Positions 34,312 to 61,739 of a stretch of 64,000 nucleotides of DNA are shown here, in pieces. Source of the DNA: an uncultured bacterium (GTDB taxonomy: Bacteria; Verrucomicrobiota; Verrucomicrobiia; Verrucomicrobiales; V1-33). The notes under the pieces are model-generated. The model ran no database searches and was not told the DNA's origin. It saw nothing but the letters and a program-made list of their open reading frames with translations. Position numbers and translations under genes: made by a program. The stretch covers positions 7,952 through 71,951 of the forward strand of contig CAIZWU010000118.1 of NCBI GenBank assembly GCA_903936775.1, given 5' to 3'. Every line of letters begins with the position of its first letter. Within the stretch, counting starts at the first letter, position 1.

Positions 34312-34974
34312 TCAGGACCCAGGCAAATGGACCGTCGCCAGGATGGTGGAGCCAGGGCCGGGGCGGGTGGAGACGGGATGCGTTTCTCCGGTCTCCAGAT
34401 TGGTTACGCTGGCGGGCTGGCCGTCCCTGATGGTGACATGGATTTTGTCGGGAGGAAGGGACATGCCGCGGCCGGTGGCTTTCATGAGGGCTTCCTTGGC
34501 GGTCCAGAGGTGGAAAAAGCGGTCCACCGGGCCTTCCGCGATCCAGTCGCGTTCTGTGGGCAGGAAAAATTCCGCCGCGATCTCCAGGGCGGGAAAGGTG
34601 GGATCGATGGTTTCCAGATCCACCCCGAGGCGGCCACCCTGACAGATGCCGAGAGCGATCCATCCGCCGGTGTGGGACAGGTTGAAATCCAAGGCTGCCC
34701 CCGGCACATAAAGCCGCCCGCCGGGTTCGGCGGCGATTTCCACCGCTTCCGGACTCAGGCCGAGCACGGACCCCAGCTGCTGTCTGACCCACGCCCGGCC
34801 GCGGACCCAGCGCTGCCGGTCGCGTTCGAAGTGAAACCGTGCCGCACGGAGATGCTCGGAAGCTGACAGGATGGACCAGGCCGCCTCCCCATCGGAAGTG
34901 CCGTCGCCCTCCGTCGGCTGGACGGCGAGCAAAAGCGTTCCCGGGAGCAAGGATGAGCCTGGGAAAAGATCCAT
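34312..34974 (-). CDS. 4'-phosphopantetheinyl transferase, Sfp type
   Basis: Track ORF trimmed to ATG 34974. Motifs FNLSHTGGWIALG, GVDLE and LWTAKEALMKATG. It starts 13 nt downstream of the megasynthase stop. Confidence 0.85.
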   Translation of the reverse strand: MDLFPGSSLLPGTLLLAVQPTEGDGTSDGEAAWSILSASEHLRAARFHFERDRQRWVRGRAWVRQQLGSVLGLSPEAVEIAAEPGGRLYVPGAALDFNLSHTGGWIALGICQGGRLGVDLETIDPTFPALEIAAEFFLPTERDWIAEGPVDRFFHLWTAKEALMKATGRGMSLPPDKIHVTIRDGQPASVTNLETGETHPVSTRPGPGSTILATVHLPGS

Positions 34975-34987
34975 GGACGGGTGAAGG

Positions 34988-37900
34988 CTAGTGGAGTTGG
35001 AAGGGCCGGGCGGGCACCTTGCCTTCAAGGGCCTGGCGCAGTTGGGTGGCCAGGACGCCGGCGTTCTCCGGATCGAAGAGTTCAAGGTGATTGCCGCGGA
35101 CATCGCGGATTTGCAGCGACGCGACCGCCGTGCCCCACCCGTAGTCCGGCAGCCGTTCATACTTGTCGTTCTCGGCGGTCGAGCGCAGCAGCACCATGGA
35201 ACCGGGATACGGCCGGACTTTATAGTCCTGGATGGCATCAATGTGGGTCAGACGGACCTGGATGATCCGCAGATGGCCGGACGCGGCCGTGCCGGAATCC
35301 AACAGGGTGCGGGCTTCCGCTGCCTCGGCATCGCGGTTCAGCTTGCCTTTGAGGCCGGTGCCGATCCGCCCGCCCAGACCTTTGACCTTGCCGCTGAAAT
35401 CCTGTCCGCCCTGACGCCAGCCCGCCGCGAGTCGTTCCGTCAGGGTCAGCATGCGCACGCCCACCCCGGGATTCTCGGTGTCGAAGAGGATCAGATGTTC
35501 CGTGCTCTGGCCGGTGGCCCGGAGTTGCTGCGCCATTTCATAGGCCACCAGTCCGCCGAAGGAGTATCCGCCAATGCGATAGGGGCCCTCGGCCTGGACG
35601 GTTTGCATCAAGGTGATGAAGTGGTGGGCGGTGGCTTCCACGTTCTTCCGTGCCAGCAGCCAGTCATCATCGGTGAGGGCGGGGGACTCGAGGATGTAGA
35701 CCGGGGTTTCCGGCCCCAATCCAGGCAGCAGGGCGCGGTAAAACAGGGCCCCGCCATCGCCGCCATGGAGGAGGAAAAGCGGGGGTGCATCAAGGCCCCG
35801 TTGCAGGCAGGCGAGGGCATCGCCGGCGGGACGCAGCAGGGGATTGGCGCTGGCGTGGTCGATGGCCTCGGACAAACGGCTCAAGGTCGGCGATTTGAAA
35901 AGGGCTCCGAGCGGCAGGGTCACCGAAAAGTCCTGACGGATTTTCTGGATCAGCCGCAGGCCATTGAGCGAGGTGCCCCCGGTATCAAAGAAGTCGGTGT
36001 CGGGGCCGATATGATTGGTGCCCAGCACCTGCTGCCAGAGGCTGGCAAGGCGGATTTCGGTCGCCGTCTGTGGAGGCGTCCATTTCTTGTCAGGCGTGGC
36101 CGAAGCCTCCGGCAGAGGCAGGGCGCGGTAGTCGATCTTGCCGTTGGCGGTGACCGGGAGGGAATCCACCAGCAGGATCACGGAAGGGACCATGTATTCG
36201 GGGAGTTGCTGGCGCACCGCTTCCCGCAGGGTTTTGGGAGTGGCGGGCAGTTCCGGGCGGACCACCACCCACGCCACCAGCCTTTTGCCGGCGGCGGTTT
36301 CCCCTACGGCGGCCACACAGCATTTTTCGACCGAGAGGTGGCGGCCGAGGATGTTTTCCACCTCGCCGGGTTCGATGCGGAATCCGCGTATTTTCACCTG
36401 GGTGTCGATGCGGCCGAGGAATTCCAGCACTCCGTCCACCCGCCAGCGGACCAGGTCGCCGGTGCGATAGAGTGTCGCCTCAGGGTCTGCCGAGAAAGGA
36501 TTCCTCACAAAGGTTTTTGCGGTCAGCTCCGGACGGTTCCAGTAGCCTGGGGCCAGCCCCTCGCCCCCGGTCCACAATTCCCCCGGGACCCCGGGGGGCG
36601 CCGGCTGCCCCTCCGCATCCAGCACGTAAACCGTGGTGTGGGCGACCGGTTTGCCGATCGGAATGATGCCGCTGGCGGCGTCCTCCGGAGTCAGGGTATG
36701 GCAGCAGGTGAAGGTGGTGTTTTCGGTAGGGCCATAGCCGTTGATGATCCGGGTCTCCGGCAGGGCCGCCATGGCTTTGCGGACATGGGCGGGCGAGAGC
36801 ACATCGCCCCCGGCGAGCAGTTGCCGGAGGGACTTCAGGTCGTCCAGCCGCTCATCGACCATCATGGAAAAAAGGCCGGAAGTGAGCCAGAGGGTGGTGA
36901 CGCCATGACGCCGGATGGCGTCACCGATGGCTTCGAGGGACATTTGTCCATCAGGTAGCAGGGCGAGGCGGCCGCCATTGAGCAGCGGGCCCCACAGTTC
37001 CAAGGTGCTGGCATCGAAAGACAGGGCGGCCGCGAGCAGGAAGGTCTGCTGGTCGTCGAGCACGGCATAGTTGGTGTTCCGGACCAGCCGGACGATGCCG
37101 CGGTGGGGCACGGGATTGCCTTTGGGCAGGCCGGTGGAGCCCGAGGTATAGATCAGATAGGCGATGTCTTCCGGCCCGGTCCCCGGATTGGGGTTGCCGC
37201 GGTCCTCCCCCTGGATGGCCTCCTCCAGCAGCAGCGTCTGGATGCCGCCGGGAACGGCCGGAGCATGCCATGAATCCGTCAGGACAAGGCGGATGCCGGC
37301 GTCGCGCAGGAGGAATTCCACGCGTTCCTTTGGATAGGAAGGGTCGACCGGCACGTAGGCGGCCCCGGCTTTGAGGATTCCCAGCAGGCCGGCCACGAGC
37401 TCGAAGGATTTGCCGGCATAGACCGCAATCCGGTCTCCGCGGGCGACTCCGTTGGCAGTGAGAATGCTGGCGATCCGGTTGGCGGTGGTATTCAGGTGGC
37501 GATAAGTCCAGACGCGGTCTTCCTGGAGAATCGCGGGCTGGTCAGGGCGGACGGCGGCGATTTCCTCAAAAAGCGCCGCCGCCGTCCGGGGGGGAGGCGG
37601 AGGGCATCCTGTGTCGTTGAAAGTGGTGAGGATTTCCTCCCGCTGGGCGGCGGAAAGCAGGGGCAATTGCCGCACGGGGGTGGCCGGGGCCGCGATCATG
37701 CCTTCCAGCAAAACCTGATAGTACTGCATCCAGCGCGCCACGGTGGACGGGTGGAAAAGATGGTTCCGGTAGACGCAGAGCAGGCGGAACCCTTCGTTGG
37801 TCTGGAAGGCAAACAGGCTCAGATCAAAGCCGAGCCGGCGTTTGGCATTGAGTTGGAATTCGCCATGCAACCCTCCGCCCAGATCGAGGGGGCCGGCGGC

Positions 37901-40900
37901 GGGTTCCAGGGTGAAGGTGGTCCTGACAAAGCCTGATCTGCCGGCGGCCGTGAGGCCCGGCAACAGGTCCAGGACCTCGCCCAGGGTGCAGTCGAGGTGC
38001 TCCTGGGCGGCGAGGAACTGCTGACGGGTCAAGGCCAGCAGGGAAGTGGCGGTACTGCCTTCCGGGAGGGTGAGGCGGAGAGGCAGGAACTGCACACAAT
38101 GACCCACCAGACCAGGGTTTCCGCTGGCCGGTTGATTGGCCAGCGGCGTGCCGATCACCACATCATCCTGGCCGGTCAGGCGGCCGAGCAGACATTGCCA
38201 CGCAGTCAGGAAGGCCACGTAAGGAGTGACTTTGTTTGCCCGGCAGAAATTCCGCAGCCGTGCAGTGAGGGCGGCCGGCAGCGGTATTTCCAGGGAATCG
38301 GCATCGAGAGGAGTATCGGCCCGGCGCGGCAGATCGGCGGGCAATTCCAACGGCTGGGGCAGCGTGGCGAACTGACCGCGCCACCAGGCCCGGGCTTCTT
38401 CGAACTCACCACGGCTGGCCGCGTCCGTGCGGGTTTCGGCATACGCCGCATAGGACGGGGCCGGAGCCAATGCGGGCAGGGATTCGCCGCAGGCCGACCG
38501 GTAGAACAGGGGCAGCTCGTGCATCAGCACTCCGTAAGACCAGCCATCGCAGATGATATGGTGTGCCGTGAGGGTCAGACGGTGGCGGTCCGGGCCCAGC
38601 TTCAGCAGCAGGGCCCGCATCAAAGGGGGGCGGGCCAGATCGAAGGGAGTGAGGAACTCCCGGCGGCCGGCCTCCTCCCCCCGCCGCGAGGCCTCTTCCT
38701 CCGGGAGGCTGGAGAGATCTTCCTGCACCAGGGGCAGCGCGCCGCCGGGGCTGATCATCATTTGTCCGCCAGCGGCATCAAATCCGGTCCGCAGGGACTC
38801 ATGGCGGCGGGCCAGTTGCTGCAAGGCCGCTTCCAGGGCGGCGGGCTGCAACGGGCCGGAAAAATCCACCGTCAGCGACTCATGACACGCCAGGGAGGCC
38901 CCGGGACTCATGCGGGAAGCGAGGAACATTTCCTGCTGCGCGGGAATCAGCGGAGCGGTGACCGCTTCGGGATGCGGGAAAAAGCCACCCCGTTGGAGGG
39001 CGGAGATGCTGTCCGCGAAAGCCGTCAGGATTTCCTCCACGTCCTGCGCGGTGTGGGCGACGCTGAGGAAGCCGGGGCGTCCTTCCCAGAGGTGGATGCC
39101 GCGCAGGCGGAGGTGATAGTAGAGCAGGCCGGAGTATTTCAGGCCGGGGTCGGCATTCAGCATCCACATGCTGCTGAAGCGGGTCGATTTGAGGGGGACG
39201 CCGGTGGATTCGAAGAGGGCGTTGAGGCGGTCCACGAAGTCCCTCGTCTTGAGTTCCACCGCCTGCTGCAGGGTAGGCCCGATTTCCTTGAGTTTGAGGA
39301 GGACGGCACGGGCCGCGGCGAGGGTCAGGGGATGGCGGATGAAGGTGCCGGCGAAAAAGGTGACGCCCACTTCGGGCATGGAATCGTCGCCGTATTGCCA
39401 CGCTCCGCCATCGAGGGCATCCATGTATTTCCGCTGGCCGCAGATCACGCCCAGGGGCATGCCGCCGCCAATGATTTTGCCGTAGGCGACGAGGTCGGCC
39501 TGGATGCCGAAGTGAGCCTGCGCCCCGCCGGGGCCGGTGCGGAAACCCAGCACCACTTCATCGAAAACGAGGGCGGTGCCGGTGTCGCGGGTGATGGCGC
39601 GGAGCTTTTGGACAAAGTCGATCGGGACCACGTCCGGACGGCGGGACATCACGGGTTCCACCAGCACGCAGGCGATATCGTGGCCGTAGCGCTGCAGGAT
39701 TTCGAGGGATTCGGGATTGTCGTATTCGAGGACGAGGATACTGGCTTGCGCGAGGTCCGGAATGCCGGGCGCAATCGGGATGGAACGCAACTCGCCATTG
39801 ATGACGAGGGGACGGGCAAGGACTTCGTCGAAGATGCCGTGATACCCACCGGCGAACATGGCGATGATGTTGCGGCCGGAGATGGTGCGGCTGGTGCGGA
39901 TGGCGGCCATGAGGGCTTCCGATCCGGTATTGCAGAAGGCGACGCGTTCCTGGCCGCTGAACCCGCGGATGAGGTGGGCGACTTCGCCGGCCAGCGGTGA
40001 GGTGGGCCCGATCTCGAAGCCCAGATCGATCTGGGCGTGGAGGGCATCGGTGACGAATTTCGGACGGTGGCCGAAGAAGCCGAGGCCGAAGCCGTGGACG
40101 ACGTCGATCCAGCGGTGGCCGTCGGTGTCCCAGAGGTAGGCGCCTTCGCTGCGGTCGGTGACGGCGGGGAAGACCATGTCCTTCCACAGGAGATTGAATC
40201 CGGCGACGGCGCGGGGGTCGGCCAGGACGTCGCGGTGGTCGGCGGTGAAGGCTTTGGCTTTAGGGTATTTTGCGGTGTAAGCGGCGATGAGACCGGTGAG
40301 ATGCGCCTGCTGGAGGGGCGTGAGGCTGCCGTCCTTGGCGCGCTCAATGGGCTTGAAGGGGCCGAAGGCGATCTTCCTGCCGTCGCTGCCTTTGAGTGTT
40401 TTGACGGGGACGGTGTAGGCAGAGGCGGTGGGGCTGGAAGAAAAGGCACCGGGCTGGAGGCTGGTGCGGAGGGCGCTGATTTGTTGTTCAATAACAGCGA
40501 GGCGATCGGCGGTGGAGCCGGTGGCCGGGGTGGCGGAAAGCCCGGCCGCAGGGGGGCTGTTTTGAAGTGCTGGGGCAGGAGTGGCAGGCGGAAATTTGTC
40601 AGAGGGAAGTTGGGCGTCCAGCCAGGTGGCAAGATCGGCGATGCTGGCCTGGTCTTCCATCAGTTGGCGGAAGGTGATCTTGAGACCAAAGTGTTTTTTG
40701 AGGGAGTTGGAGGCGGAAGTCAGGAACAGGGAGTCGAAACCGAGGTCGAGGAAGGGCGTGGCGGGGTCGGCGGTGGCGGTGTCGATGCCGGAAATTTGGT
40801 GGAGTTGGGTGCGGAGTTCTTCAACAAGATGGGCATGGCGTGAAACGGCTGCGCTGATGGGAGCTTCCGAAACCAGGACCTCGGGAATTCCGGCGGCAGT

Positions 40901-43642
40901 GGCGCCTGGTGTGGGGACACTTGGCGGCGCGGCGGTGGTGCCGGTGGGGAGTTGGATCCACGCTTCGCCTTCGCGGGTGGTGCCGGCGGGCAGGATGGTG
41001 TCAGGGCAATAACGTTGGCGCTCGAAGGGGTAGCCGGGGAGGGGAAGGCGGCGGCGGCGGGTGTGGTGGTGGAAGGCGGGCCAGTCGAGCGTCAGGCCGT
41101 CGGTCCAGGCTTTGCCGAGGGATTGCAGGAAGGTGGGGTATTCGTTGGCTCCGGCATTCCTGGCGGGAGGGAGCAGCGGGAGCGAAGCCGTGCTGGCGGC
41201 GGCGGGATGTTGTTTGGCGAGGGGCGCGAGGGCGGTGCCGGGACCCACTTCAAGCAAAAGGGACGGGCCGGCCTGACAGAGTGTGGCAATACCATCGGCG
41301 AAGCGGACGGTGTGGCGGATGTGGCGGACGTAGTAGGCGGGATCGGTGGCCTCGGCTCCGGTGATGAATTCCCCCGTGAGATTTGAAATGTAAGGAAGCT
41401 GCGGCGGATGGAGCGTGATGGTGTCAACGGCCGCGCGGAAGGCTTCCAGCATGGGGTCCATCATGGCGCTGTGGAAGGCGTGGCTGGTGTGGAGCTTGCG
41501 GGCAGAGTGTCCGGCGGCTTCGAGCGTCAGGGCGAAGGCCTCGATGGCTTCGGCGGGTCCGGAGACGACGCTGAGACCCGGGGCATTGAGCGCGGCAACG
41601 TCCAACGTGGAAGGTAACAGGGGCAGGAGTCCGGCCTCAGGCAGACGGATGGCCAGCATGGAACCGGGGGCCATGGAGGCCATCAGGCGGCCACGGAGCG
41701 CGACCAGTTTGGTGGCGTCTTCGAGGGACATGACACCGGCGAGGGTGGCGGCAACGTATTCCCCGATGCTGTGGCCCAGCATGGCCGATGGTGTCAGACC
41801 GAAGGAGAGGAGCAGCTTGCCGAGGGCGTATTCGACCGCGAAAAGCGCGGGCTGGGTGAAACGGGTATCGTCGAGATCCGGGATGTTATGGAGATCGAGG
41901 TCCGCTTTGGCAAAACAAACGGCGCAGGCTTCGAAGGCCTCGCGGTAAGCGGGTTCGTGGGCGTAGAGTTCCTCGCCCATGCCAGGGTGTTGCGAGCCCT
42001 GGCCCGGGAAGAGGAAGACCACGGGGGGGGGCGGCGTGTCGGTGTGCGTTGACGGCGCGGGAGTGCGCAGTTGGGCGATGGCGTCCGGGATCGAGGCGAC
42101 CGCGAGGGCCCGGCGGTGGGGGAAGGCCTGCCGGCCGGTTTGCAGGGTCCAGGCAGTGTCCGCCAGGAGGGAATTCGGGATTTCAGATTTGAAATTTGAG
42201 AGGAGGGATTCGAGGTGGGTGGCGAGGTTGTCGCAGGCGGCAGTGAGGGCGGACGGGGTTTTGGCGGAGAGGACGAGGAGTTGGTGGGACCGGGTGGGGG
42301 TTTCGGAAGGAGCGGTGGCAGGGGCTTCCTCCAGCACGACGTGGGCATTGGTGCCGCCGACGCCAAAACTGCTGACGCCGGCGCGGAGGGGGGGGGCGCT
42401 GGTCCATGCCTGGAGTTTGTCGACAATGTAGAAGGGGCTGTCTTCCAGGTTCAGCGCGGGATTGGGACGCTTGAAGTGGAGAGTAGGGGGAAGTTGGCGG
42501 TGGTGGAGGGCCAGGGTGGTTTTGATGAGGCCTCCGATACCGGCGGCGGCGTCCATGTGGCCGGTGTTGGATTTGAGGGAGCCCAGGCCACAGAAGTTTT
42601 TGCGTCCGGTGCTCAGGCGGAAGGCCTGGGTAAGGCCGGCGACTTCGATAGGATCGCCGATGGGGGTGGCGGTGCCGTGGCCTTCGACGTAGGAAATGGT
42701 GTCAGGATCGATGTTGGCGAGCGCTTGGGCGAGGGCGATGACTTCGGCGTGGCCGTCGACGCTGGGGGCAGTGAAGCTGGCTTTTCCGCCGCCGTCATTG
42801 TTGAGGGCGGCGCCCTTGATGACAGCCCAGACGTGGTCGCCCTCCCGGACGGCGTCTTCGAGGCGCTTGAGGAGAACGACGCCGAGTCCATTGGAGAAGA
42901 CGGTGCCGCGGGAGTCGGCATCGTAGGGGCGGCAGTGGCCGTCCGGAGAGTAAAGACTGCCTTCCTGGGCGGTGTAGCCGCGGTGCTGCGGCCACTTGAC
43001 GCTGACGCCTCCGGCGAGGGCGGCGTCGCAGGCGTAGGATTGCAGGGCCTGGACGGCCTGGCAGACCGCCACGAGCGAGGTGGAGCACGCGGTGTAGATA
43101 TTCAGAGCCGGGCCGCGGAGGTTGAGTTTATAAGCCGTGCGGGTGGCGAGGTAGTCCTTTTCATTGGCGATCATGGTGCCCTCATAACCAAACTGGGCGC
43201 GGAGTTCCGCATTGGGCAGGATCTGGTGCTGGACCCACGAACTGTTGGACATGCCGGCGTAGACGCCGATGGCGCCGGGGTAACGGGAGGGGTCGCAGCC
43301 GGCGTCTTCGAGGGCGTGCTGGCAGGACTCGAGGAAGAGGCGCTGCTGGGGGTCGATGACTTCGGCTTCGCGCGGATTGATATTGAAGAAAGCGGCATCA
43401 AACCATTCAGGTTTTTCCAGGACCCCGCGGCGGGGGACGTAGTCAGGGTCGAGTTTGTTTTCCTCGGTGGGGATCTCTTCGACAGGGATGGTGGAGATGG
43501 TTTCGCGGCCGGCGGTGAGGTTTTCCCAGAAGGCGCTGAGGGTTTCCGCTCCGGGAAAACGCCCGGCCATGCCGACGATGGCGATGCCTTCGAGGGAGGG
43601 GGCGGCAGCTGGAGGGGACTGGGAGTCGGAGAAGCTGCTCAT
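34988..43642 (-). CDS. hybrid PKS-NRPS megasynthase: KS-AT-ACP-aminotransferase-C-A-T-TE
   Basis: 2884 aa from ATG 43642 (the track ORF extends to 43894 as Pro-rich read-through). Approximate domains follow. KS 42323-43594 (TACSTS, EGHGTAT, SNTGH). AT 41123-42022 (GHSIGE, HAFH). ACP 40613-40840 (LGFDS). Class-III PLP aminotransferase 38978-40345 (AFCNTGSEA, YGKIIGGGMP). C 37658-38959 (HHIICDGWS). A 36113-37585 (LIYTSGSTGLPKG, NGYGPTE, ANGKID; hand-read code DALWLGGTFK). T 35849-36070 (FFDTGGTS). TE 35018-35800 (GYSFGG, plus downstream Asp and His). Confidence 0.95.
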   Translation of the reverse strand: MSSFSDSQSPPAAAPSLEGIAIVGMAGRFPGAETLSAFWENLTAGRETISTIPVEEIPTEENKLDPDYVPRRGVLEKPEWFDAAFFNINPREAEVIDPQQRLFLESCQHALEDAGCDPSRYPGAIGVYAGMSNSSWVQHQILPNAELRAQFGYEGTMIANEKDYLATRTAYKLNLRGPALNIYTACSTSLVAVCQAVQALQSYACDAALAGGVSVKWPQHRGYTAQEGSLYSPDGHCRPYDADSRGTVFSNGLGVVLLKRLEDAVREGDHVWAVIKGAALNNDGGGKASFTAPSVDGHAEVIALAQALANIDPDTISYVEGHGTATPIGDPIEVAGLTQAFRLSTGRKNFCGLGSLKSNTGHMDAAAGIGGLIKTTLALHHRQLPPTLHFKRPNPALNLEDSPFYIVDKLQAWTSAPPLRAGVSSFGVGGTNAHVVLEEAPATAPSETPTRSHQLLVLSAKTPSALTAACDNLATHLESLLSNFKSEIPNSLLADTAWTLQTGRQAFPHRRALAVASIPDAIAQLRTPAPSTHTDTPPPPVVFLFPGQGSQHPGMGEELYAHEPAYREAFEACAVCFAKADLDLHNIPDLDDTRFTQPALFAVEYALGKLLLSFGLTPSAMLGHSIGEYVAATLAGVMSLEDATKLVALRGRLMASMAPGSMLAIRLPEAGLLPLLPSTLDVAALNAPGLSVVSGPAEAIEAFALTLEAAGHSARKLHTSHAFHSAMMDPMLEAFRAAVDTITLHPPQLPYISNLTGEFITGAEATDPAYYVRHIRHTVRFADGIATLCQAGPSLLLEVGPGTALAPLAKQHPAAASTASLPLLPPARNAGANEYPTFLQSLGKAWTDGLTLDWPAFHHHTRRRRLPLPGYPFERQRYCPDTILPAGTTREGEAWIQLPTGTTAAPPSVPTPGATAAGIPEVLVSEAPISAAVSRHAHLVEELRTQLHQISGIDTATADPATPFLDLGFDSLFLTSASNSLKKHFGLKITFRQLMEDQASIADLATWLDAQLPSDKFPPATPAPALQNSPPAAGLSATPATGSTADRLAVIEQQISALRTSLQPGAFSSSPTASAYTVPVKTLKGSDGRKIAFGPFKPIERAKDGSLTPLQQAHLTGLIAAYTAKYPKAKAFTADHRDVLADPRAVAGFNLLWKDMVFPAVTDRSEGAYLWDTDGHRWIDVVHGFGLGFFGHRPKFVTDALHAQIDLGFEIGPTSPLAGEVAHLIRGFSGQERVAFCNTGSEALMAAIRTSRTISGRNIIAMFAGGYHGIFDEVLARPLVINGELRSIPIAPGIPDLAQASILVLEYDNPESLEILQRYGHDIACVLVEPVMSRRPDVVPIDFVQKLRAITRDTGTALVFDEVVLGFRTGPGGAQAHFGIQADLVAYGKIIGGGMPLGVICGQRKYMDALDGGAWQYGDDSMPEVGVTFFAGTFIRHPLTLAAARAVLLKLKEIGPTLQQAVELKTRDFVDRLNALFESTGVPLKSTRFSSMWMLNADPGLKYSGLLYYHLRLRGIHLWEGRPGFLSVAHTAQDVEEILTAFADSISALQRGGFFPHPEAVTAPLIPAQQEMFLASRMSPGASLACHESLTVDFSGPLQPAALEAALQQLARRHESLRTGFDAAGGQMMISPGGALPLVQEDLSSLPEEEASRRGEEAGRREFLTPFDLARPPLMRALLLKLGPDRHRLTLTAHHIICDGWSYGVLMHELPLFYRSACGESLPALAPAPSYAAYAETRTDAASRGEFEEARAWWRGQFATLPQPLELPADLPRRADTPLDADSLEIPLPAALTARLRNFCRANKVTPYVAFLTAWQCLLGRLTGQDDVVIGTPLANQPASGNPGLVGHCVQFLPLRLTLPEGSTATSLLALTRQQFLAAQEHLDCTLGEVLDLLPGLTAAGRSGFVRTTFTLEPAAGPLDLGGGLHGEFQLNAKRRLGFDLSLFAFQTNEGFRLLCVYRNHLFHPSTVARWMQYYQVLLEGMIAAPATPVRQLPLLSAAQREEILTTFNDTGCPPPPPRTAAALFEEIAAVRPDQPAILQEDRVWTYRHLNTTANRIASILTANGVARGDRIAVYAGKSFELVAGLLGILKAGAAYVPVDPSYPKERVEFLLRDAGIRLVLTDSWHAPAVPGGIQTLLLEEAIQGEDRGNPNPGTGPEDIAYLIYTSGSTGLPKGNPVPHRGIVRLVRNTNYAVLDDQQTFLLAAALSFDASTLELWGPLLNGGRLALLPDGQMSLEAIGDAIRRHGVTTLWLTSGLFSMMVDERLDDLKSLRQLLAGGDVLSPAHVRKAMAALPETRIINGYGPTENTTFTCCHTLTPEDAASGIIPIGKPVAHTTVYVLDAEGQPAPPGVPGELWTGGEGLAPGYWNRPELTAKTFVRNPFSADPEATLYRTGDLVRWRVDGVLEFLGRIDTQVKIRGFRIEPGEVENILGRHLSVEKCCVAAVGETAAGKRLVAWVVVRPELPATPKTLREAVRQQLPEYMVPSVILLVDSLPVTANGKIDYRALPLPEASATPDKKWTPPQTATEIRLASLWQQVLGTNHIGPDTDFFDTGGTSLNGLRLIQKIRQDFSVTLPLGALFKSPTLSRLSEAIDHASANPLLRPAGDALACLQRGLDAPPLFLLHGGDGGALFYRALLPGLGPETPVYILESPALTDDDWLLARKNVEATAHHFITLMQTVQAEGPYRIGGYSFGGLVAYEMAQQLRATGQSTEHLILFDTENPGVGVRMLTLTERLAAGWRQGGQDFSGKVKGLGGRIGTGLKGKLNRDAEAAEARTLLDSGTAASGHLRIIQVRLTHIDAIQDYKVRPYPGSMVLLRSTAENDKYERLPDYGWGTAVASLQIRDVRGNHLELFDPENAGVLATQLRQALEGKVPARPFQLH
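42176..42204. repeat. AT-rich tandem-heptamer tract, copy 4 (ATTTCAG ATTTGAA ATTTGAG), in the KS-AT linker of the hybrid gene
   Basis: Plus strand cgggATTTCAGATTTGAAATTTGAGagga. It matches copy 1 at 28 of 29 nt but is translated in a different frame (LLSNFKSEIP). Confidence 0.8.
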
Positions 43643-43700: not shown

Positions 43701-46700
43701 TTAACGGCGGGCGGCGGCGGCCCGTTGGGCAGCGGCGCGGGCGGCGGCAGCGCGGGATGGGATGTCGTGGGCGGGCGGGGTGCCGGCCGGGGAGGGTGCC
43801 GGGGAAAGCCAGGCCGCAAGGGTGGCGATAGTGGGGTATTGGAAGAGGGCGGTGATGGGAAGGGGGCGGGCAAGTTCCTGACTGGTGGCGGCATGGACGC
43901 GGAGCATCAGAAGGGAGTGGCCGCCGAGGTCGAAGAAGTTGTCCATGGTGCTGATGCTGGTCAGGCCGAAGGCGCGCTGCCAGATGGCGGCGAGGCGTTG
44001 CTCCATGGGGGTGGACGGGGATTTGAAATTTGAAGTTTCAAGTTTGGGAGCGGCCGCGGGGGGAGAACACTGGGGGGGAAGCGGCAAGGCGGCGAGGTGT
44101 TGTGAGAGCGGTGCCCCGGGGTGGGTGGCGAAAGATTGAAGGAGGGTGGTGAAGGAAGCCACGATCTGCCGGGCGCGGGGGGCGGAGCAGGCGGCTTCCT
44201 GATAAACGAGGAGAAGATCCCAGGAGGCAGCGGAAGGGGTGACAACCACGGTGAGGGGGAAGTTGGTGTGGATGGGGCCGTCGAAATCTGAGAGGGTGGT
44301 CCGGGAGCCGAGTTGGGTGAGGGTCCCGTCGATTTGATAGTTCTGGAAGACGAGGAGGCTCTCAAAGAGGCGGAACCGCCACGGGACCGCGGAGCAGTCC
44401 TGGATGCGCGGGAGCGGGGTGGACTGGTGGGCGGCGAGATCGGTGAGGTGGTGGTGGACGCTGCGGAGGAAGTCGCTGGCGGGGAGGGCAGGATCGATTT
44501 TCGAGCGGACGGGGAGGTTATTGACGAAAGGTCCGGGGATGCGGTCGGCCCCGGGGAGGTCAGCCGGACGGCCGGAGAACGCCGAGCCGTGGACGACATC
44601 CTGGCTGCCGGCGGCGTGGGAGAGCAGGGCGGCCCAGGCGGCCTGGACGAGGACGCCGGGCGTGAGGCCGAGGCCGCGCGCGGCAGCCGTCAGGGAGGCG
44701 GAGGTTTCCGGGGAAAGGGTGGCGCGGGCTTCGGCCGTGCGCCGGGAAGTGCGGGGTCCGGGGAGGGCCTCGACCGGAATGGGGGTAGGAGCTTCAATCC
44801 CGGCCAGGGTGGCTTGCCAGAAGGGGTCGGAGCTGGCTTCGGGTTGGCGCTCCAGCCAAGCGAGGTAGTCACGGTAGGGCTGCGGGGACGGGAGGCCGGG
44901 GTTCCCTCCGGAGGTTAGCGCACGGTAGGTGGCAGCGGCTTCCGCGAAGACGACAGGCCAGGACCAGCCGTCAAGTTGGAGGCCGGGGACAGACCAGCAG
45001 AAGAAGTGATCCTCCGGGGAGAGGCGCATCAGGGTGAAACGGCCACAGGGCGCCTTGGTGAGGTCGTTGACGAGGGAGGCGTCCGAAGTGAGGAAATGAG
45101 TGATGCAGCCGGGACCACTGGATTCAAGGAAGTTGAATTCCGGGACCGCGGTGCGGTGCACCATCATGACGGCGTGCGGCAGGCCGGCACTGTGGAAGGT
45201 GGAGCGCAGGATGGTATGGCGTTGGACCACTTGGGCCCAGGCGGCCTGGAGCGCGGAGACGTCCAGCGGTCCGCCGATGCGGCAACACCATTGATCGAAG
45301 CCGGCGTTGGGTTTGGTGAGGGCGGCATGGTGGAACAGCCGCTGCATGGGGGAGAGGCGGCAGATGTCTTCCGGGCCCGGATGGGCGGCGAGGAGGGCAT
45401 CGAGGCTGGCCTGATCCAGGTGGGCGAGGGGAAAATCGGACGGCGTGCAGCGGGGAGTGGTGATGGTCAGGCAATGACCGATGACCTGATGGAGGGCGGT
45501 GAGGAAGGCTTCGGCGAAAGCCGTGAGGCTTTCCGGGGTGTGGGCCGGGGCAGCACTGGTGAAGGTAGTTTCCAGGCGGCTACCGATGACCATGGCGTTG
45601 ATTTCGGTGGCGTGGGCGCGGGTGGCGCGGGGGCTGTGCCAGGGGCCGGTGGATTCCGGGGCAAAGGAGAAGAGGGCACTGCCGGAAGTGAGGGCGTCGA
45701 ATTGCCCCAGGTAGTTGAAGACGAGGGTGGAGGAAGCGTTTTCAGTGGCTTGCCACTGATGGCTGGCGCCGTTGTCGGGGAGGGCGCGGAGGTGTTCTTT
45801 GATGAATGGAATAGCCTGGGCGGGGTCGGTTGACGGGACGGTGAGGTGGAGGGGGAAAAGGGCGGTGAACCAACCGATGGTGCGGTCCAACGGCAGGCCG
45901 GGCGCGAGGGTCTCTTCCCGGCCGTGACCTTCCAGATGCAGGGACAGGGTGGGGGCGGATGCCGTGGCCTGATGAGCCAGCGTCAGGGCTGTCAGCAGAA
46001 GGTCGTTGATGCGGGTGCGGTAGGCGGCGGGGGCGCGGTGGAGGAGGGCGGTGGTGTTGGCCTCGTCGAGGGCGACGGTGTGGGCAAAGGTGCCGGATTC
46101 GAGTGTTAGGTCAGCTTCCGGGACGGGCTGGATGGTGGACCAGTAATGGAGGCTTGGGCGGGCTTCCGGGGTGGTGGGCCAGTGGGCGAGTTGGCGGGCC
46201 CACTGCGGCCAGGTGGCGGTGGGGGCTGGGAGCGGCTGGCCGGTCAGGAGGGACTCGAGGTCTTCCAGAAGGATACGCCAGGACACGCCGTCGATGGCGA
46301 GGTGGTGGACGGCGAGGCAGAGGCGGCCGGGGCGGTCTTCGCCCGCGTCGAAGAGGGCGGCGCGGATGATCGGGCCGGTTTGGTGGTTGAGGGTGGTCTG
46401 CAGCTGGGCGCAGTGGGATTCCAAGCCGGTGAGATCCGGATAGGTGGTGAGGAGGTGGGCGGTTTCCTCCGGGGCGATGGAAGGCGTCCAAGTGTTGTTT
46501 TCCTGATGGAATCTCAGGCGCAGCGCGGGATGGCGGGCGGTGAGTTCACGGAGGACGCGGTGAAGGCATTCGGGATCGGGGCGGTCACTGAGGGTGAAGA
46601 GGAACGATTGGTTCCAGTGGTGGGAATCAGCTAGGTTTTGAGCGAAGAACCAGCGCTGGATGGGCGTGAGGGGGAAGGGGGCGGTGAGGTCGTCCGGGGA

Positions 46701-49700
46701 TGATTGAAGACTTGAGATATGAGATTGGAGCGGGGGCGCAACGCTGGCGAGAGAGGCGATCGTGGGGTGCTCGAAGAGTTGCCGCGGGGTGAGGGCGAGG
46801 CCGGCTTCGCGGGCCCGGGCGATGACTTGGATGGAAAGGATGGAATCGCCTCCGATCTCGAAAAAGTTGTCGGTGGTGCTGACGCGGTCGAGGCGGAGGA
46901 CCGCAGACCAGATGAGGGTCAGGACTGCCTCGGAGGGGGTGACGGGGGCTTGGAACGGGCGGGTGGTGGCGGGGCCGTCAGCGGCGGGCGCGGGGAGGGC
47001 CTTGCGGTCGAGTTTTCCGTTCGGAGTGATAGGAAACTTTTCCAGGAAGACGAAAGCGGCCGGGATCATGTAGTCCGGGACGCGGGTTTTGAGGAGGGCG
47101 CGGAGCTCATCCGGGGACGGTGGGTCGGCGGGGTCGGCAGGGACGAGGTAGGCGCAGAGGCGTTTGCCGCCGGGGCAGTCTTCGCGGGCGAGAACGGTGG
47201 CTTCCTCGACCGCGGGATGGGAAGTCAGGATATTTTCGATTTCACCCAGCTCGATGCGGAAGCCGCGGATTTTGACCTGGTGGTCGATGCGGCCGAGGTA
47301 TTCGATGTCGGGACTGGCGGCCCCGGGAATGAAGCGGGCTAGGTCGCCGGTTTTGTAGAGCCGCCCGTGGCCGGTCAGGTGGTTGGGGAGGAAACGGTCG
47401 GCGGTCAGTTCATCCCTCCGGAGGTAGCCGGTGGCGAGGCCAGCTCCGCCGACATACATCTCGCCGGGAACGCCGATGGGGACCGGTTGGCCATTGCCAG
47501 GATCGAGGATGTAGAGCTGGAGATCCGGGATGGGGATGCCGATGACGGAGCCACTCTCCAAATCCCGGGAGGACAGGGGGCGGTAGGTGACATGGACCGT
47601 CGTCTCCGTGATCCCATACATGTTGACGAGAACCGGGGCGGTGTCGCCGTGCCGGTCGAACCATGGTTTGAGGCTCTGCATTTCGAGGGCTTCGCCCCCG
47701 AAGATCACGTAGCGGAGGGACTGGGCCGGGAGGCCAGGATGGGTGGCGCGGGCGCGGGGTCCGGCCTGGATGAGTTGGCGGAAGGCGCTGGGGGTTTGGT
47801 TGAGGACGGTGACTTGTTCCTGACAGAGGAGGGCAAAGAACTCGTCAGGGCTGCGGCTGGTGAGCCAGGGGACGACGACAAGGCGGCCTCCGAAGAGGAG
47901 GGCGCCCCAGAGTTCCCAGACGCTGAAATCGAAGGCGGTGGAGTGGAAAAGGGTCCAAACGTCGTTTTCGTTGAAGCCATACCAGGGGTCGGTGGCTTTC
48001 ATGAGGCGGACCACGTTGCGGTGGGTGATCTGGCAGCCTTTGGGGAGGCCGGTGGAGCCGCTGGTGTATATGATGTAGGCCAGCGAGTCCGGGTCGGTGG
48101 GGATCCGGGATTTGAGATTTGAAATTTGAGAGGAAGCCGCGAAACCGATGTCTTCGATGAAGAGGGTAGTGGCGGGGTTTCCGGGGATTTTGGAGGCGAG
48201 GGGGCGCTCGGTCAGGAGGACGGGGGCCCGGGCGTCCTCCAGCATGAAGGCGAGGCGCGCGGGCGGGTAGGCGAGGTCGATCGGAAGGTAGGCGGCGCCG
48301 GCTTTGAGGATGCCGAGCAGTGACGCGATGAGCGGGGCGCGGCGGTCCATGCAGAGGCCGACGAAGTCACCAGGCTTGACGCCGGCGGTGATGAGAGCCT
48401 GGGCGACGAGGGTGGAGCGGCGGTCGAGTTCCGCGTAGGTCCAGGTGGCGTCTTCGGCGGTGACGGCGGTGCGGTTGGGATATTGCGCGGCGGTTTGGCT
48501 GAACCAGCCGTGGAGGGTGGTGTCCGAGTCAACCTGGGGGTCGGTGGGTTGCCAGTCCTGGAGGAGGAATTGGCGTTCGGCCGGAGTGATGAGGTGGAAC
48601 TTGGAAAGCGCGGTGGTCAGAGGGAGGGTGGCGAATTGCTCAAGGAGCTGGGCCATGTGGCCGAGGAGGCGTTGGATGGTTTCGTGGTCGAAGGTGGCGG
48701 GCTGATAGGCGCAATGGAGGCGGAGGGCGTGGGAGCCGTAAACGGCCAGGGTGAGGGGGACGCTGGTGAGTTCGTGGAGCTCGAAGGTGCGGTGGGCAAA
48801 GGCCGGTCCGCCGGTGGCGCGGAGCGTGTTGGTGTAGTCGTCGTTTTCGAAGACTAGGAGGTGGTTGAATGGAACCTGGGTGGCGCTGAGGCCGCAACTG
48901 CGGCGGATGAAGGAAAGCGGGGTCTGCTCGTGGGGACGGAGGTCGAGCCAGTGCTGGCGGAGCGACTGGAGGAGCGTGAGGAGGGGTTGGTTGGAGGGAA
49001 GATCGGCTTTGAGGGGGAGGGTGTTGATGAGGAGGCCGATGGTATTTTCCGAGTCCGGCACGGGAGTGTGGCGGCAGGCGCGGGTGGCTCCGAAAATGAT
49101 ACGGTCTTCCCCGGCGTAACGGCCCAGCAGGAGCGCGAAGGCCGCTTGGACAAAAGTATTTAACGTGAAGCCATGGGTGGCGGCGAGGTGGCGCAGGGTG
49201 GCAGTCAGGGAAGCGGGAAAGTGGAGATCGGCTTCTGCCTGGGGGGAGCGGGAGGAAACAGAATCAGCCGCGCCTGCAGGACTGGGACGGTGATTGGCGA
49301 TGGGCCTGATGACGTGATCGACGATCAGGGGGGTGGGGCCGGTGATGCCGCTGAGGTGGGACTGCCAGAAAGGAATGGAGGGCGTGTGGTCGAGCGAGGC
49401 TTGCCAGCGATTGTGGGATTGGAAGGACGGGCGGGATGGAGGGGGTTCCTGTGAGGGAATGTCGTAGCGGGAGAAGACTTCCTGGAGCAGGGCGGTGATG
49501 GCCCTGCCGTCGATCAGAATGTGATGGAACGTCCAGATGAGATGGTAATGCTCTGGCGACTGGCGGATAAGGGTGAGGCGTTGCAGGGGGCCTGCGGTCA
49601 GGTGAAGAGGGGTGGTGCGGTCATTTTCGAGGAAAGCGGCGACATCTGAGGAGTCCAGTTCTTGCCAGGGAACGGGGAGGGTATCGTGGACGGTGGCGGC

Positions 49701-49916
49701 TTCGGCGGTGAAGGTGGTGCGGAGAATGGGGTGGGCCGCGGCGAGGGCTTCCCATGCGGCGCGGAGGCGGGGGGCCTCAATGCTTTCCGGGAGGGTGCAG
49801 ACCATTTGCTCGACGTCGATCCCTGCGGCCGGGTCCTGGAGCCACGTAAAGTACATGCCCTGCTGCAGCGGGGTCAGCGGCAGGGGTGTTTCAGGCGCAG
49901 GCAGGGGGGCGCTCAT
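43701..49916 (-). CDS. non-ribosomal peptide synthetase: C-A(Thr)-T-E-C*-T
   Basis: 2071 aa. Approximate domains follow. C 48582-49889 (HHILIDG). A 46992-48524 (AYIIYTSGSTGLPKG, FDFSVWE, NMYGITETTVH, PNGKLD; hand-read code DFWNIGMVHK). T 46737-46949 (FFEIGGDS). E 45417-46685 (PLTPIQRWFF, HHLAIDG). C* 44082-45374 (all core motifs present except that HHxxxDG reads PGLQLDG at 44967-44987). T 43797-44015 (FFDLGGHS). Confidence 0.95.
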   Translation of the reverse strand: MSAPLPAPETPLPLTPLQQGMYFTWLQDPAAGIDVEQMVCTLPESIEAPRLRAAWEALAAAHPILRTTFTAEAATVHDTLPVPWQELDSSDVAAFLENDRTTPLHLTAGPLQRLTLIRQSPEHYHLIWTFHHILIDGRAITALLQEVFSRYDIPSQEPPPSRPSFQSHNRWQASLDHTPSIPFWQSHLSGITGPTPLIVDHVIRPIANHRPSPAGAADSVSSRSPQAEADLHFPASLTATLRHLAATHGFTLNTFVQAAFALLLGRYAGEDRIIFGATRACRHTPVPDSENTIGLLINTLPLKADLPSNQPLLTLLQSLRQHWLDLRPHEQTPLSFIRRSCGLSATQVPFNHLLVFENDDYTNTLRATGGPAFAHRTFELHELTSVPLTLAVYGSHALRLHCAYQPATFDHETIQRLLGHMAQLLEQFATLPLTTALSKFHLITPAERQFLLQDWQPTDPQVDSDTTLHGWFSQTAAQYPNRTAVTAEDATWTYAELDRRSTLVAQALITAGVKPGDFVGLCMDRRAPLIASLLGILKAGAAYLPIDLAYPPARLAFMLEDARAPVLLTERPLASKIPGNPATTLFIEDIGFAASSQISNLKSRIPTDPDSLAYIIYTSGSTGLPKGCQITHRNVVRLMKATDPWYGFNENDVWTLFHSTAFDFSVWELWGALLFGGRLVVVPWLTSRSPDEFFALLCQEQVTVLNQTPSAFRQLIQAGPRARATHPGLPAQSLRYVIFGGEALEMQSLKPWFDRHGDTAPVLVNMYGITETTVHVTYRPLSSRDLESGSVIGIPIPDLQLYILDPGNGQPVPIGVPGEMYVGGAGLATGYLRRDELTADRFLPNHLTGHGRLYKTGDLARFIPGAASPDIEYLGRIDHQVKIRGFRIELGEIENILTSHPAVEEATVLAREDCPGGKRLCAYLVPADPADPPSPDELRALLKTRVPDYMIPAAFVFLEKFPITPNGKLDRKALPAPAADGPATTRPFQAPVTPSEAVLTLIWSAVLRLDRVSTTDNFFEIGGDSILSIQVIARAREAGLALTPRQLFEHPTIASLASVAPPLQSHISSLQSSPDDLTAPFPLTPIQRWFFAQNLADSHHWNQSFLFTLSDRPDPECLHRVLRELTARHPALRLRFHQENNTWTPSIAPEETAHLLTTYPDLTGLESHCAQLQTTLNHQTGPIIRAALFDAGEDRPGRLCLAVHHLAIDGVSWRILLEDLESLLTGQPLPAPTATWPQWARQLAHWPTTPEARPSLHYWSTIQPVPEADLTLESGTFAHTVALDEANTTALLHRAPAAYRTRINDLLLTALTLAHQATASAPTLSLHLEGHGREETLAPGLPLDRTIGWFTALFPLHLTVPSTDPAQAIPFIKEHLRALPDNGASHQWQATENASSTLVFNYLGQFDALTSGSALFSFAPESTGPWHSPRATRAHATEINAMVIGSRLETTFTSAAPAHTPESLTAFAEAFLTALHQVIGHCLTITTPRCTPSDFPLAHLDQASLDALLAAHPGPEDICRLSPMQRLFHHAALTKPNAGFDQWCCRIGGPLDVSALQAAWAQVVQRHTILRSTFHSAGLPHAVMMVHRTAVPEFNFLESSGPGCITHFLTSDASLVNDLTKAPCGRFTLMRLSPEDHFFCWSVPGLQLDGWSWPVVFAEAAATYRALTSGGNPGLPSPQPYRDYLAWLERQPEASSDPFWQATLAGIEAPTPIPVEALPGPRTSRRTAEARATLSPETSASLTAAARGLGLTPGVLVQAAWAALLSHAAGSQDVVHGSAFSGRPADLPGADRIPGPFVNNLPVRSKIDPALPASDFLRSVHHHLTDLAAHQSTPLPRIQDCSAVPWRFRLFESLLVFQNYQIDGTLTQLGSRTTLSDFDGPIHTNFPLTVVVTPSAASWDLLLVYQEAACSAPRARQIVASFTTLLQSFATHPGAPLSQHLAALPLPPQCSPPAAAPKLETSNFKSPSTPMEQRLAAIWQRAFGLTSISTMDNFFDLGGHSLLMLRVHAATSQELARPLPITALFQYPTIATLAAWLSPAPSPAGTPPAHDIPSRAAAARAAAQRAAAARR
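44017..44049. repeat. tandem-heptamer tract, copy 3 (ATTTGAA ATTTGAA GTTTCAA GTTTGGG), in the C*-T linker
   Basis: Plus strand ggggATTTGAAATTTGAAGTTTCAAGTTTGGGa. It encodes PKLETSNFKSP. Confidence 0.7.
46703..46730. repeat. degenerate tandem-heptamer tract, copy 2 (ATTGAAG ACTTGAG ATATGAG ATTGGAG), in the T-E linker
   Basis: It is preceded by gggg, like the other copies, and encodes LQSHISSLQS. Confidence 0.55.
48106..48134. repeat. AT-rich tandem-heptamer tract, copy 1 (ATTTGAG ATTTGAA ATTTGAG), inside the NRPS A domain
   Basis: Plus strand cgggATTTGAGATTTGAAATTTGAGagga. It encodes SSQISNLKSR in the variable loop before the AYIIYTSGSTG core motif. Confidence 0.8.
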
Positions 49917-50698
49917 GCGGGGAAGAGATCGGTGCGGCGGTCGCGCAAGGCAGGGAATTGAGCGCGCCAGGCAGCGGTGGTTTCGGCGGAAATGGTGGTG
50001 CGGAGGAGGGTGGGGGCGGAACCCGCTTCGGTGACGACTTCACCGTGGGGATCGATGATGGCGCTGGCTCCGGCGTAGTGGAAATGGGGGTCGGAACCGC
50101 AGCGGTTGAGGCCGAGCACGAAGGCTTGGTTCTCGATGGCGCGGGCGCGGAGCAGGATGGTTTTATGCTGCTGGCGGCGGTCGGGCCAGTTGGCGATGAC
50201 GCAGAAGAGGTCGGCCCCGGCGCCGGTGGCGGCGCGGAAAAGTTCCGGGAAGCGGAGGTCGTAGCAGATGACGGGAGCGACCGTGAAGCCGTTCCACGGG
50301 AAGGTGACGATTTCCGAGCCCGCAGTGAAGGCCTGGGCTTCGCCAGCCGGGGAGAAGGAGTGGATCTTCCGGTAGCGGGCGAGGAGGGAGCCGTCGGGGG
50401 AGAAGGCGAGGGCCTCGTTGGCTCCGGTCCCGTCAGGAAGCTGCCGGGACAGGCCACCCAGGACGTAAATCCGGTGCTGGCGGGCGAGGCTGGCGAGGAA
50501 GCTTTCCGTCTCGGCGGCGGGAGTGTCGGCGGCTTGCGACACGTTCATGCTGAAGCCACTGGAGAACATTTCGGGCAGTACCAAGAGCGAGCCGGGGGCA
50601 AGGGCAGGGCGGGCGGAGTCCAGAGCCTGCGAGACGGTGGTAAAGTTCGCCGAACGGTCCTCCCAAGCGATGTCGAATTGAAGGGCACAAAGTTCCAT
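49913..50698 (-). CDS. carbon-nitrogen hydrolase, omega-amidase (YafV/Nit2)-like
   Basis: Trimmed to ATG 50698 (MELCALQFDIAWED). Nitrilase-superfamily Glu-Lys-Cys triad contexts: LVLPEMF, YRKIHSF and APVICYDLRFPE. Also ANWP and RARAIENQAFV. By eye it is collinear with E. coli YafV. Its stop overlaps the NRPS start (ATGA at 49913-49916). Confidence 0.8.
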   Translation of the reverse strand: MELCALQFDIAWEDRSANFTTVSQALDSARPALAPGSLLVLPEMFSSGFSMNVSQAADTPAAETESFLASLARQHRIYVLGGLSRQLPDGTGANEALAFSPDGSLLARYRKIHSFSPAGEAQAFTAGSEIVTFPWNGFTVAPVICYDLRFPELFRAATGAGADLFCVIANWPDRRQQHKTILLRARAIENQAFVLGLNRCGSDPHFHYAGASAIIDPHGEVVTEAGSAPTLLRTTISAETTAAWRAQFPALRDRRTDLFPA

Positions 50699-50982
50699 GG
50701 GACAAAAGGCAGTAAATTCTAAAAAATATACTGAATACAGTAAATCCAAAACACTCCATTTGCAAGAAATATTACAAACCTTAATAACCAATCAAAATTG
50801 ATCTAAACGGTTGGGCGGCCCTGCGGTTCGCGTCGGGTTCAGGGAGAAGAATGTGTCCGCGGTGAGAAAATATGGGCAGGTATAAAAAAGACGGAAAGAT
50901 TGATTATAATTCTAAAAATACTGGAAAAAACCAAAGGATCGTTTATACTTTACGGCAATTACCCGATTTATTTGCAATTTCC
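50699..50982. promoter_or_regulatory. AT-rich divergent intergenic (promoter) region between the NRPS/PKS operon and the polysaccharide-export operon
   Basis: This is the lowest-GC stretch in the neighbourhood. It lies between divergent starts at 50698 (minus) and 50983 (plus; the track allows 50872). It contains a direct repeat AATTCTAAAAA(TA)TACTG at 50715-50733 and 50908-50923. Confidence 0.45.
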
Positions 50983-58297: not shown

Positions 58298-58377
58298 GGC
58301 CGGCAATCTATAGGGAGCGGCGGCGCCGCTGGCAAGAAACCGTTTTGCTCCTTTCCAGCGCCGTGCCATGGAGGAGG

Positions 58378-61474: not shown

Positions 61475-61660
61475 TCACTCCGCTTCGGGATCCTGAAGTG
61501 CCTTTGAAGCGGGGTAATTTAAAGTCTCCCCGGTTTGCACGACTACGATGGAGAGCATCCTGGAATCCACTTTTTTCAGAACTTGATAAACCGGACCCTC
61601 ACGCCCGAACCGGCGGTAGGATCCCACCAGATCCCCGGAATTTGAAATCATGGTCTTCAT
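61475..61660 (-). CDS. small ORF immediately upstream of vapD (possible cognate partner)
   Basis: 61-aa ORF ending 6 nt before the vapD start, on the same strand. No motif recognised. The call rests only on its position. Confidence 0.3.
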   Translation of the reverse strand: MKTMISNSGDLVGSYRRFGREGPVYQVLKKVDSRMLSIVVVQTGETLNYPASKALQDPEAE

Positions 61661-61739
61661 GAAATTTCGTTGCCTCGAAACAGTGAAGGGGTCAAGAGGC
61701 CGCCGAAAAGAATACCAGCGAAAGAGCGGCAGGATATCT

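Follow-up and report, generated by a model that had tools for sequence, protein, structure and literature searches.

A probable YafV/Nit2-type amidase gene coupled to a peptide synthetase operon in an uncultured verrucomicrobial bacterium: a possible helper for a glutamine-dependent transamination step

The 64-kb stretch of DNA analyzed here (the window; contig CAIZWU010000118.1 of an uncultured verrucomicrobial bacterium) carries a minus-strand operon of four genes, in the order amidase, nonribosomal peptide synthetase (NRPS), hybrid polyketide synthase (PKS)-NRPS and phosphopantetheinyl transferase (PPTase). The first gene, nit, overlaps the NRPS gene and very probably encodes a YafV/Nit2-type amidase, as judged from sequence comparisons. 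The hybrid synthase contains an aminotransferase (AMT) domain homologous over its full length to that of MycA. The best single explanation, which we put forward tentatively and at somewhat less than even confidence, is that the amidase acts as a helper for a glutamine-dependent AMT step. This explanation is favored because of the context in which the family occurs, the deep conservation of the coupling to the synthetase gene, the homology of the AMT to MycA and a precedent in zeamine clusters. No published proposal of an omega-amidase helper for AMT assembly lines was found in the literature searched.

The amidase gene and its family

The amidase open reading frame (ORF) runs on the minus strand from an ATG at 50698 to a TGA stop at 49915–49913. 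Residues 6–245 match the Pfam CN_hydrolase model PF00795 (E = 3.5e-40; 138.4 bits against a cut-off of 23.2), and the catalytic residues are E43 (50570–50572), K111 (50366–50368) and C145 (50264–50266). When aligned, this Glu-Lys-Cys triad is in register with those of mouse Nit2, yeast Nit3, Staphylococcus aureus 3p8k and Xanthomonas XC1258, and the conserved second glutamate of nitrilases is retained as E120. An earlier reading made from the letters alone (the sequence-only reading) had described a nitrilase-superfamily first gene with an intact triad, which the Pfam match and these three residues bear out. It had also placed the stop codon over the NRPS start as ATGA, and the plus strand indeed reads tcat at 49913–49916. 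This overlap indicates translational coupling of the amidase and NRPS genes.

Upstream of the amidase gene, the 173-bp spacer has a G+C content of 40%, compared with 66% in the genes. It holds one sigma-70-like site (TTTACT-17-TAGAAT, 50744..50716, minus strand; a consensus match only) located 18 nt from the amidase ATG, and a divergently transcribed porin-like gene begins at 50872. Since a low-G+C spacer with such a site and a divergent gene lie upstream, the amidase gene is taken to be the first cistron. The gene is under purifying selection, with a nonsynonymous-to-synonymous rate ratio (dN/dS) of 0.12–0.16 relative to close relatives. The protein has no signal peptide, and in the structural model residues 2–7 are already part of the core fold, as its first beta strand.

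To place the protein within its superfamily, it was scored against NCBIfam models. The YafV model NF007757 ranks first, with 165.8 bits (under its equivalog cut-off) and a lead of about 60 bits over the next, a deaminated-glutathione amidase model. The models for Nit1/YbeM deaminated-glutathione amidases (NF033621, 104.6 vs 355; NF043013, 73.6 vs 500), for aliphatic amidase and formamidase (NF009802, 56.3 vs 427; NF009803, 68.1 vs 406) and for Lnt (TIGR00546, 55.6 vs 132.9, with only residues 114–219 matched) all remain below their cut-offs. Nitrilase, formamidase, aliphatic amidase, Lnt, AguB and NadE models all score far lower than the YafV model. The 261 residues consist entirely of the soluble core, without the N-terminal membrane domain expected of Lnt. 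The branch check suggested by the sequence-only reading thus points to the YafV/Nit2 group and away from Lnt, aliphatic amidase, formamidase and Nit1, although with a score beneath the YafV equivalog threshold.

Sequence and structure comparisons converge on the same relatives. The amidase is collinear over its whole length with E. coli YafV (35–38% identity) and with Nit2 (31–34%), a collinearity previously noted by eye. Its closest solved relatives by sequence are 3p8k, XC1258 (PDB 2e11), mouse Nit2 and yeast Nit3. The AlphaFold (AF2) model (pLDDT 96.2, pTM 0.93) adopts an alpha-beta-beta-alpha sandwich fold, and a Foldseek search with this model again returned 3p8k, XC1258, Nit2 and Nit3 on top (template modeling [TM] scores 0.85–0.94). 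In a neighbor-joining (NJ) tree, E. coli YafV and XC1258 are nested among the homologous loci, with Nit2 and Nit3 as the outgroup. YafV and XC1258 share with the amidase a length class of 256–266 aa, full-length collinearity, the triad and the best NCBIfam model; they differ in that identity reaches only 35–38% and the amidase lies under the YafV equivalog cut-off. E. coli yafV (b0219), which RefSeq names 2-oxoglutaramate amidase, is moreover solitary beside ivy and fadE, outside any biosynthetic operon. Mammalian Nit2 and yeast Nit3 (PDB 2w1v and 1f89; nitrilase branch 10) resemble the amidase in fold (TM 0.85–0.89) and in their aligned catalytic residues, but share only ~30% identity with it, form an outgroup to the bacterial YafV-type family and have Trp at the position of its Lys179. 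The established role of Nit2 and Nit3 is hydrolysis of the 2-oxoglutaramate formed by glutamine transaminases.

Conserved columns were defined on 78 members, comprising family members from other phyla together with E. coli YafV and XC1258. Of the 53 columns conserved in 90% or more of these members, the amidase keeps 51, the exceptions being S114 and K179. Position 179 varies among Lys, Gln, Met and Trp within the immediate subclade, and Lys is also found in a copy without a cluster; on these grounds Trp179Lys was rejected as a marker of a new function.

Transaminase partners and linkage to synthetase genes

The AMT domain of the hybrid synthase aligns, over residues 2–406 of 407, with the solved AMT of mycosubtilin synthase MycA (PDB 6kfm; E = 2.6e-125). 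It follows KS-AT-ACP and precedes a C domain. The likeness to the MycA structures (PDB 6kfm, 6kfr and 6kfu) thus covers both an end-to-end alignment and the KS...ACP-AMT-C context, the difference being that the starter is peptidyl in this operon and fatty acyl in MycA. To our knowledge, mycosubtilin and iturin operons carry no amidase gene. The sequence-only reading had mentioned a reported preference of the MycA AMT for glutamine; passages in two papers do state glutamine as its amine source (PMC3870968, PMC3547906), and the AMT of this operon is a full-length homologue of that domain.

The neighboring genes of 76 homologous loci without synthetase genes were clustered, and the commonest neighbor is a class-I aminotransferase, present in 19 loci (L076, L066, L055, L073, L067, L074, L080, L017, L019, L009, L041, L011, L020, L014, L024, L015, L038, L012 and L059) from Acidobacteriota, Planctomycetota, Armatimonadota and Gemmatimonadota. 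In every case it is the immediate upstream gene on the same strand, with a gap of 3 to ~560 nt. A representative (L076, 8785–9996) scores above the cut-off of the NCBI 'methionine aminotransferase' subfamily, and its closest solved relatives are Rv0858c, E. coli YbdL, kynurenine aminotransferase/glutamine transaminase K and the Thermus glutamine aminotransferase. By homology, this pair is the classic pairing of a glutamine transaminase with an omega-amidase. It is the best contextual evidence here that the family handles 2-oxoglutaramate, as a trait of the family and not of the operon's amidase. The logic of a transaminase and an amidase for its by-product is shared with the known pairs of the 'glutaminase II' route and methionine salvage (GTK/KAT/YbdL/MtnE with omega-amidase). 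There, however, the transaminase is free-standing, belongs to class I and uses 2-oxo acids, whereas the putative partner in this operon is a fold-type-I class-III AMT domain within a megasynthase, with a carrier-bound beta-keto acyl chain as substrate.

Other bacteria also have YafV-like genes in clusters with an AMT. In the zeamine cluster of Serratia, Zmn15 is a 259-aa YafV homologue; its gene is the third after that of the AMT-bearing PfaD homologue Zmn12 and is followed immediately by the NRPS gene zmn16 (PMC3547906). Deletion of zmn15 reduced the yield of every zeamine, and no new intermediates appeared (PMC5811116). The 'Nit' gene of fabclavine and Xlt clusters is the same YafV-like gene (PMC5709968, PMC7214866), and a figure legend and a table of BLAST hits suggest that it is retained in a polyamine-only cluster of X. 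bovienii (PMC9113149, Fig. 2 legend; PMC3547906). Set against the published gene table (PMC3547906), the amidase gene agrees with this class of cluster-embedded YafV-like genes in its 261-aa product, the MycA-type AMT in its cluster and the NRPS gene directly downstream. Compared by description, the two systems share a YafV-like protein of ~259 aa, a MycA-type AMT and a position directly upstream of an NRPS gene. They differ in that Zmn15/Nit occurs in Gammaproteobacteria, with the AMT in a PfaD-like protein of the polyunsaturated fatty acid (PUFA) synthase type and five aminations per molecule, and in the middle of the cluster, whereas the operon's amidase is the first cistron. By analogy, Zmn15/Nit is a second case in which a YafV-like gene and a MycA-type AMT have come together independently, and the effect of its deletion is more easily reconciled with a helper than with a tailoring enzyme. 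The arrangement had been called unusual, but it has a precedent, since zeamine and fabclavine clusters contain a YafV-like gene beside an AMT (PMC3547906, PMC5811116, PMC7214866).

Linkage of the amidase to synthetase genes was followed in a pattern-based, low-recall scan of one genome per species, and metagenomic contigs with homologues were looked up in addition. In the scan, the amidase adjoins NRPS and KS-AT-AMT genes in four verrucomicrobial assemblies only (76–96% identity), and the remaining 76 amidase loci (identity up to 55%) have no synthetase genes within 10 kb. Across the verrucomicrobial clade as a whole, 12 of 15 contexts, down to 56% identity, have the nit-first layout, that is, divergent export genes, amidase, NRPS and AMT hybrid as far as the contig reaches. 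The metagenomic relatives with this layout are P0022 (74%), L170 (69%), L084/L085 (59%), L167/L168/L172 (57%) and L171 (56%). The amidase-NRPS junction is ATGA in the window, L001, L003, L171 and P0022, and TGATG in L168, with gaps of 3–5 nt in L084 and L167, 17 nt in L172 and ~50 nt in L170. Most linked contexts therefore have an overlap or a gap of at most 5 nt, and this coupling stayed while the first C domain diverged to 44–46% identity.

Three contexts show the amidase without a cluster. In L082 (74% identity), an intact amidase gene is followed by C1, KS and TE fragments and then by an intact PPTase gene, forming a deletion scar at 3943–4829; by tblastn, the fragments comprise 35 + 17 aa of the first C domain, 54 aa of the KS and 66 + 18 aa of the TE C-terminus. 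Its sister lineage P0022 still has an NRPS-sized gene downstream. The other cluster-less copies adjoin rplU-rpmA (L083, 68% identity) or lie between a HAD hydrolase gene and yjeF (L169, 74%). A 63-sequence clade with all these contexts was recovered in 186 of 200 NJ bootstraps. A clade of cluster-specific amidase paralogues was also considered and was rejected (0/200 bootstraps). On the simplest reading of these sequences, the ancestor of the clade already had the nit-first operon, and the cluster was lost several times, with the amidase retained on loss. On this comparative evidence the amidase is a long-standing member of the operon but not reserved for the pathway, and its survival in L082, L083 and L169 argues that it has a use without the pathway. 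The flanking genes of the window share no synteny with the 76 non-cluster loci, and the neighbors of L083 and L169, searched for in all loci and in the window, gave no shared context, so an ancestral 'housekeeping position' could not be defined.

The operon and its surroundings

The coordinates of the operon features are collected in Table 1. The A domain of the NRPS has the code DFWNIGMVHK, predicting Thr. Its second C domain (C*, 43947–45329, minus strand) has SVPGLQLDGWS in place of HHxxxDG, so that both His are gone, and the C*-T module has no A domain. The PG/PD variant of the C* motif is kept in L001, L003 and L004. For the hybrid PKS-NRPS, the A-domain code is DALWLGGTFK (Val-like). Its longest ORF begins at 43894, which lies 194 nt within the gene before it, and opens with a low-complexity, Pro-rich stretch; the ATG at 43642 (MSSFSDSQ...) is likely to be the start. 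In one relative, L167, both synthetase genes are fused into a single 4920-aa ORF (10779–20774; C-A-T-E-C-T-KS-AT-...-AMT...).

Table 1 Features of the amidase-led operon and its borders.
Feature	Position	Strand	Basis
Nitrilase-superfamily amidase gene (nit), YafV/Nit2-type carbon-nitrogen hydrolase (very probably), 261 aa, first cistron	49913..50698	minus	ORF call, Pfam, NCBIfam, alignments, AF2 model
ATGA stop/start overlap, amidase TGA with NRPS ATG	49913..49916	minus	plus-strand letters tcat
Intergenic spacer, 173 bp, amidase gene to divergent porin-like gene	50699..50871		sequence
NRPS, 2071 aa, C-A-T-E-C*-T	43701..49916	minus	domain matches, A-domain code
Hybrid PKS-NRPS, KS-AT-ACP-AMT-C-A-T-TE	34988..43642	minus	domain matches, A-domain code
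AMT (Aminotran_3) domain, full-length MycA AMT homologue	38975..40171	minus	match to PDB 6kfm
Sfp-type 4'-phosphopantetheinyl transferase (PPTase), last operon gene	34312..34974	minus	domain match
Ig/PKD gene, ends the unit after PPTase	31867..34257	convergent to operon	gene call

Polysaccharide-export genes (porin-like, GNVR/Wzz and Bac_transf) lie divergently upstream of the operon. Elsewhere in the window, four successive long ORFs (525, 373, 325 and 251 aa) at 27504–31733 on the minus strand have no Pfam match at E 0.001. On the plus strand, two ORFs that match the AlkB-like 2OG-Fe(II) oxygenase family (PF13532) lie less than 4 kb apart, at 58051–58989 and 61650–62318, and the former overlaps an MFS transporter ORF on the opposite strand.

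Proposed role and alternatives

In the explanation proposed here, an NRPS-PKS line with a MycA-type AMT would convert a beta-keto thioester into a beta-amino thioester, and the amidase would be co-transcribed and co-translated with it. If the AMT takes its nitrogen from glutamine as MycA does, 2-oxoglutaramate would be released at each turnover. The amidase, a predicted soluble omega-amidase using a Glu-Lys-Cys thiol mechanism, would hydrolyze it to 2-oxoglutarate and ammonia, which would clear a dead-end, lactam-forming by-product and return its carbon and nitrogen to metabolism. The analysis demonstrates the gene with its triad, its place in the family, the arrangement of the operon, the conserved coupling and the AMT–MycA homology; the substrate of the amidase, the use of glutamine by this AMT and a benefit to product yield are what we infer. 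The amidase is unlikely to be exclusive to the pathway and may double as the general omega-amidase of the cell. Since 2-oxoglutaramate cyclizes spontaneously, the enzyme would serve salvage and clean-up more than a thermodynamic pull. Thus, of the earlier suggestion that the amidase pulls the transamination forward, by-product removal is still plausible, but probably as clean-up and not as a thermodynamic necessity. Overall, the helper interpretation given in the sequence-only reading finds support in part.

Several observations weigh against this proposal. The YafV score of 165.8 falls short of the equivalog cut-off of 249, and Lys179 (codon 50162–50164) replaces a Trp present without exception in the 78 members as well as in Nit2 and Nit3. 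A glutamine donor has been demonstrated for MycA only, and its use by the operon's AMT is argued from homology. The cluster-linked copies of the amidase are monophyletic in none of the 200 bootstraps, with L083 and L169 nesting inside the clade, and in L082 an intact amidase outlasts deletion of the megasynthase. The sequence-only reading had spoken of a dedicated gene, which the nested cluster-less copies and the copy left intact in L082 contradict. In addition, gene adjacency could arise from promoter sharing alone, and the linkage of amidase and synthetase genes represents only about two independent evolutionary events.

An alignment of 25 AMT homologues was used to collect 80 metagenomic loci (50–62% identity, 10-kb flanks), all of which lie among KS, AT, C or A domains. 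As a further point on the negative side, a CN-hydrolase gene was found in none of these 80 other AMT-bearing PKS/NRPS loci within 10 kb, either by tblastn with 14 diverse YafV/Nit2 sequences or with a profile hidden Markov model (HMM) of the family (E up to 1; 6252 ORFs); positive controls scored 364–412 bits. The survey reached 356 kb of non-synthase flank and extended more than 1.5 kb past the synthase genes upstream in 33 and downstream in 52 of the 80 loci. In the window, the amidase lies 9.7 kb upstream of the AMT, so that a 10-kb flank barely reaches it in clusters of the same layout, and for such layouts the result is weakened by this limit. AMT clusters in general do not carry an amidase gene, and the co-occurrence that had been suggested as a check was not seen.

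The main rival explanation, which we consider somewhat unlikely, is that the protein is an ordinary housekeeping omega-amidase without a pathway role and that the downstream synthetase genes merely use its promoter. Much of what was just listed speaks for it, namely the nesting of non-cluster copies in a tree that resembles the species tree, the intact gene after cluster loss in L082, L083 and L169, and the 0/80 survey result. The dN/dS values are also alike with and without the cluster. No second amidase paralogue was seen in the 64-kb window, and the pattern-based, low-recall scan returned one locus in each of the four cluster-bearing genomes. Promoter sharing, however, does not readily account for same-strand junctions that remained overlapping or nearly so while neighboring domains fell to 44–65% identity. 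It also leaves aside the unrelated zeamine/fabclavine family, in which a YafV-like gene is paired with an AMT and its deletion cuts yield (PMC5811116), and the frequent co-transcription of family members with a glutamine-type transaminase.

Two other explanations assign the amidase a function on the product or on the assembly line itself. It might be a tailoring, maturation or resistance amidase that hydrolyzes or forms a non-peptide amide, either on the product or on a precursor of it; release of an N-acyl group from the N-terminal D-Thr would be one example. The first module, C-A-T-E, has the layout of N-acyl-D-amino-acid prodrug starts, a shifted specificity is conceivable given Trp179Lys and the YafV score below threshold, and the nitrilase superfamily includes N-carbamoyl-D-amino-acid amidohydrolases. 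Nevertheless we regard this role as improbable, since neither predicted building block (Thr, Val) brings in a side-chain amide of the Asn or Gln kind, all but two of the 53 family-invariant positions are intact and Lys179 is not tied to the cluster. Known prodrug-cleaving enzymes are periplasmic, whereas the amidase, which lacks a signal peptide, is cytoplasmic in nature, and deletion of zmn15 gave no uncleaved or unmodified products (PMC5811116). Alternatively, the amidase might work as an Lnt-like acyl-transfer enzyme whose Cys-bound acyl group is handed to the assembly line, for instance at the starter C domain or at the C*-T module that has no A domain. With no A domain in the second module and no catalytic His pair in its C*, that module must indeed be loaded or bypassed in some way, and nitrilase-superfamily enzymes do act through a thioester intermediate. 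But the Lnt model is matched only partially (55.6 vs 132.9) and the membrane domain is absent, and family members from synthetase-free loci are nearly identical at the conserved sites. A simpler account of the A-less module is that a single A domain serves both T domains, as it does in HMWP2 of the yersiniabactin system. We therefore consider acyl transfer very improbable. Capture of an amide-derived, ATP-free Cys-acyl group by the phosphopantetheine arm of the orphan T domain, which would load a carrier without adenylation, is equally hard to credit.

The interest of the helper role for the AMT step lies mainly in offering a cheaply testable function for an unexplained class of genes in AMT-bearing clusters. 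If the role is not real, the operon would illustrate that conserved membership can reflect promoter sharing. If it is real, on-line beta-amination would have a recurring accessory enzyme that clears a glutamine-derived by-product, and the unexplained Zmn15 and fabclavine 'Nit' proteins would gain a function that accounts for the lowering of every zeamine upon zmn15 deletion. Co-expression of an omega-amidase would then be a simple means of raising the yield of AMT pathways in other hosts.

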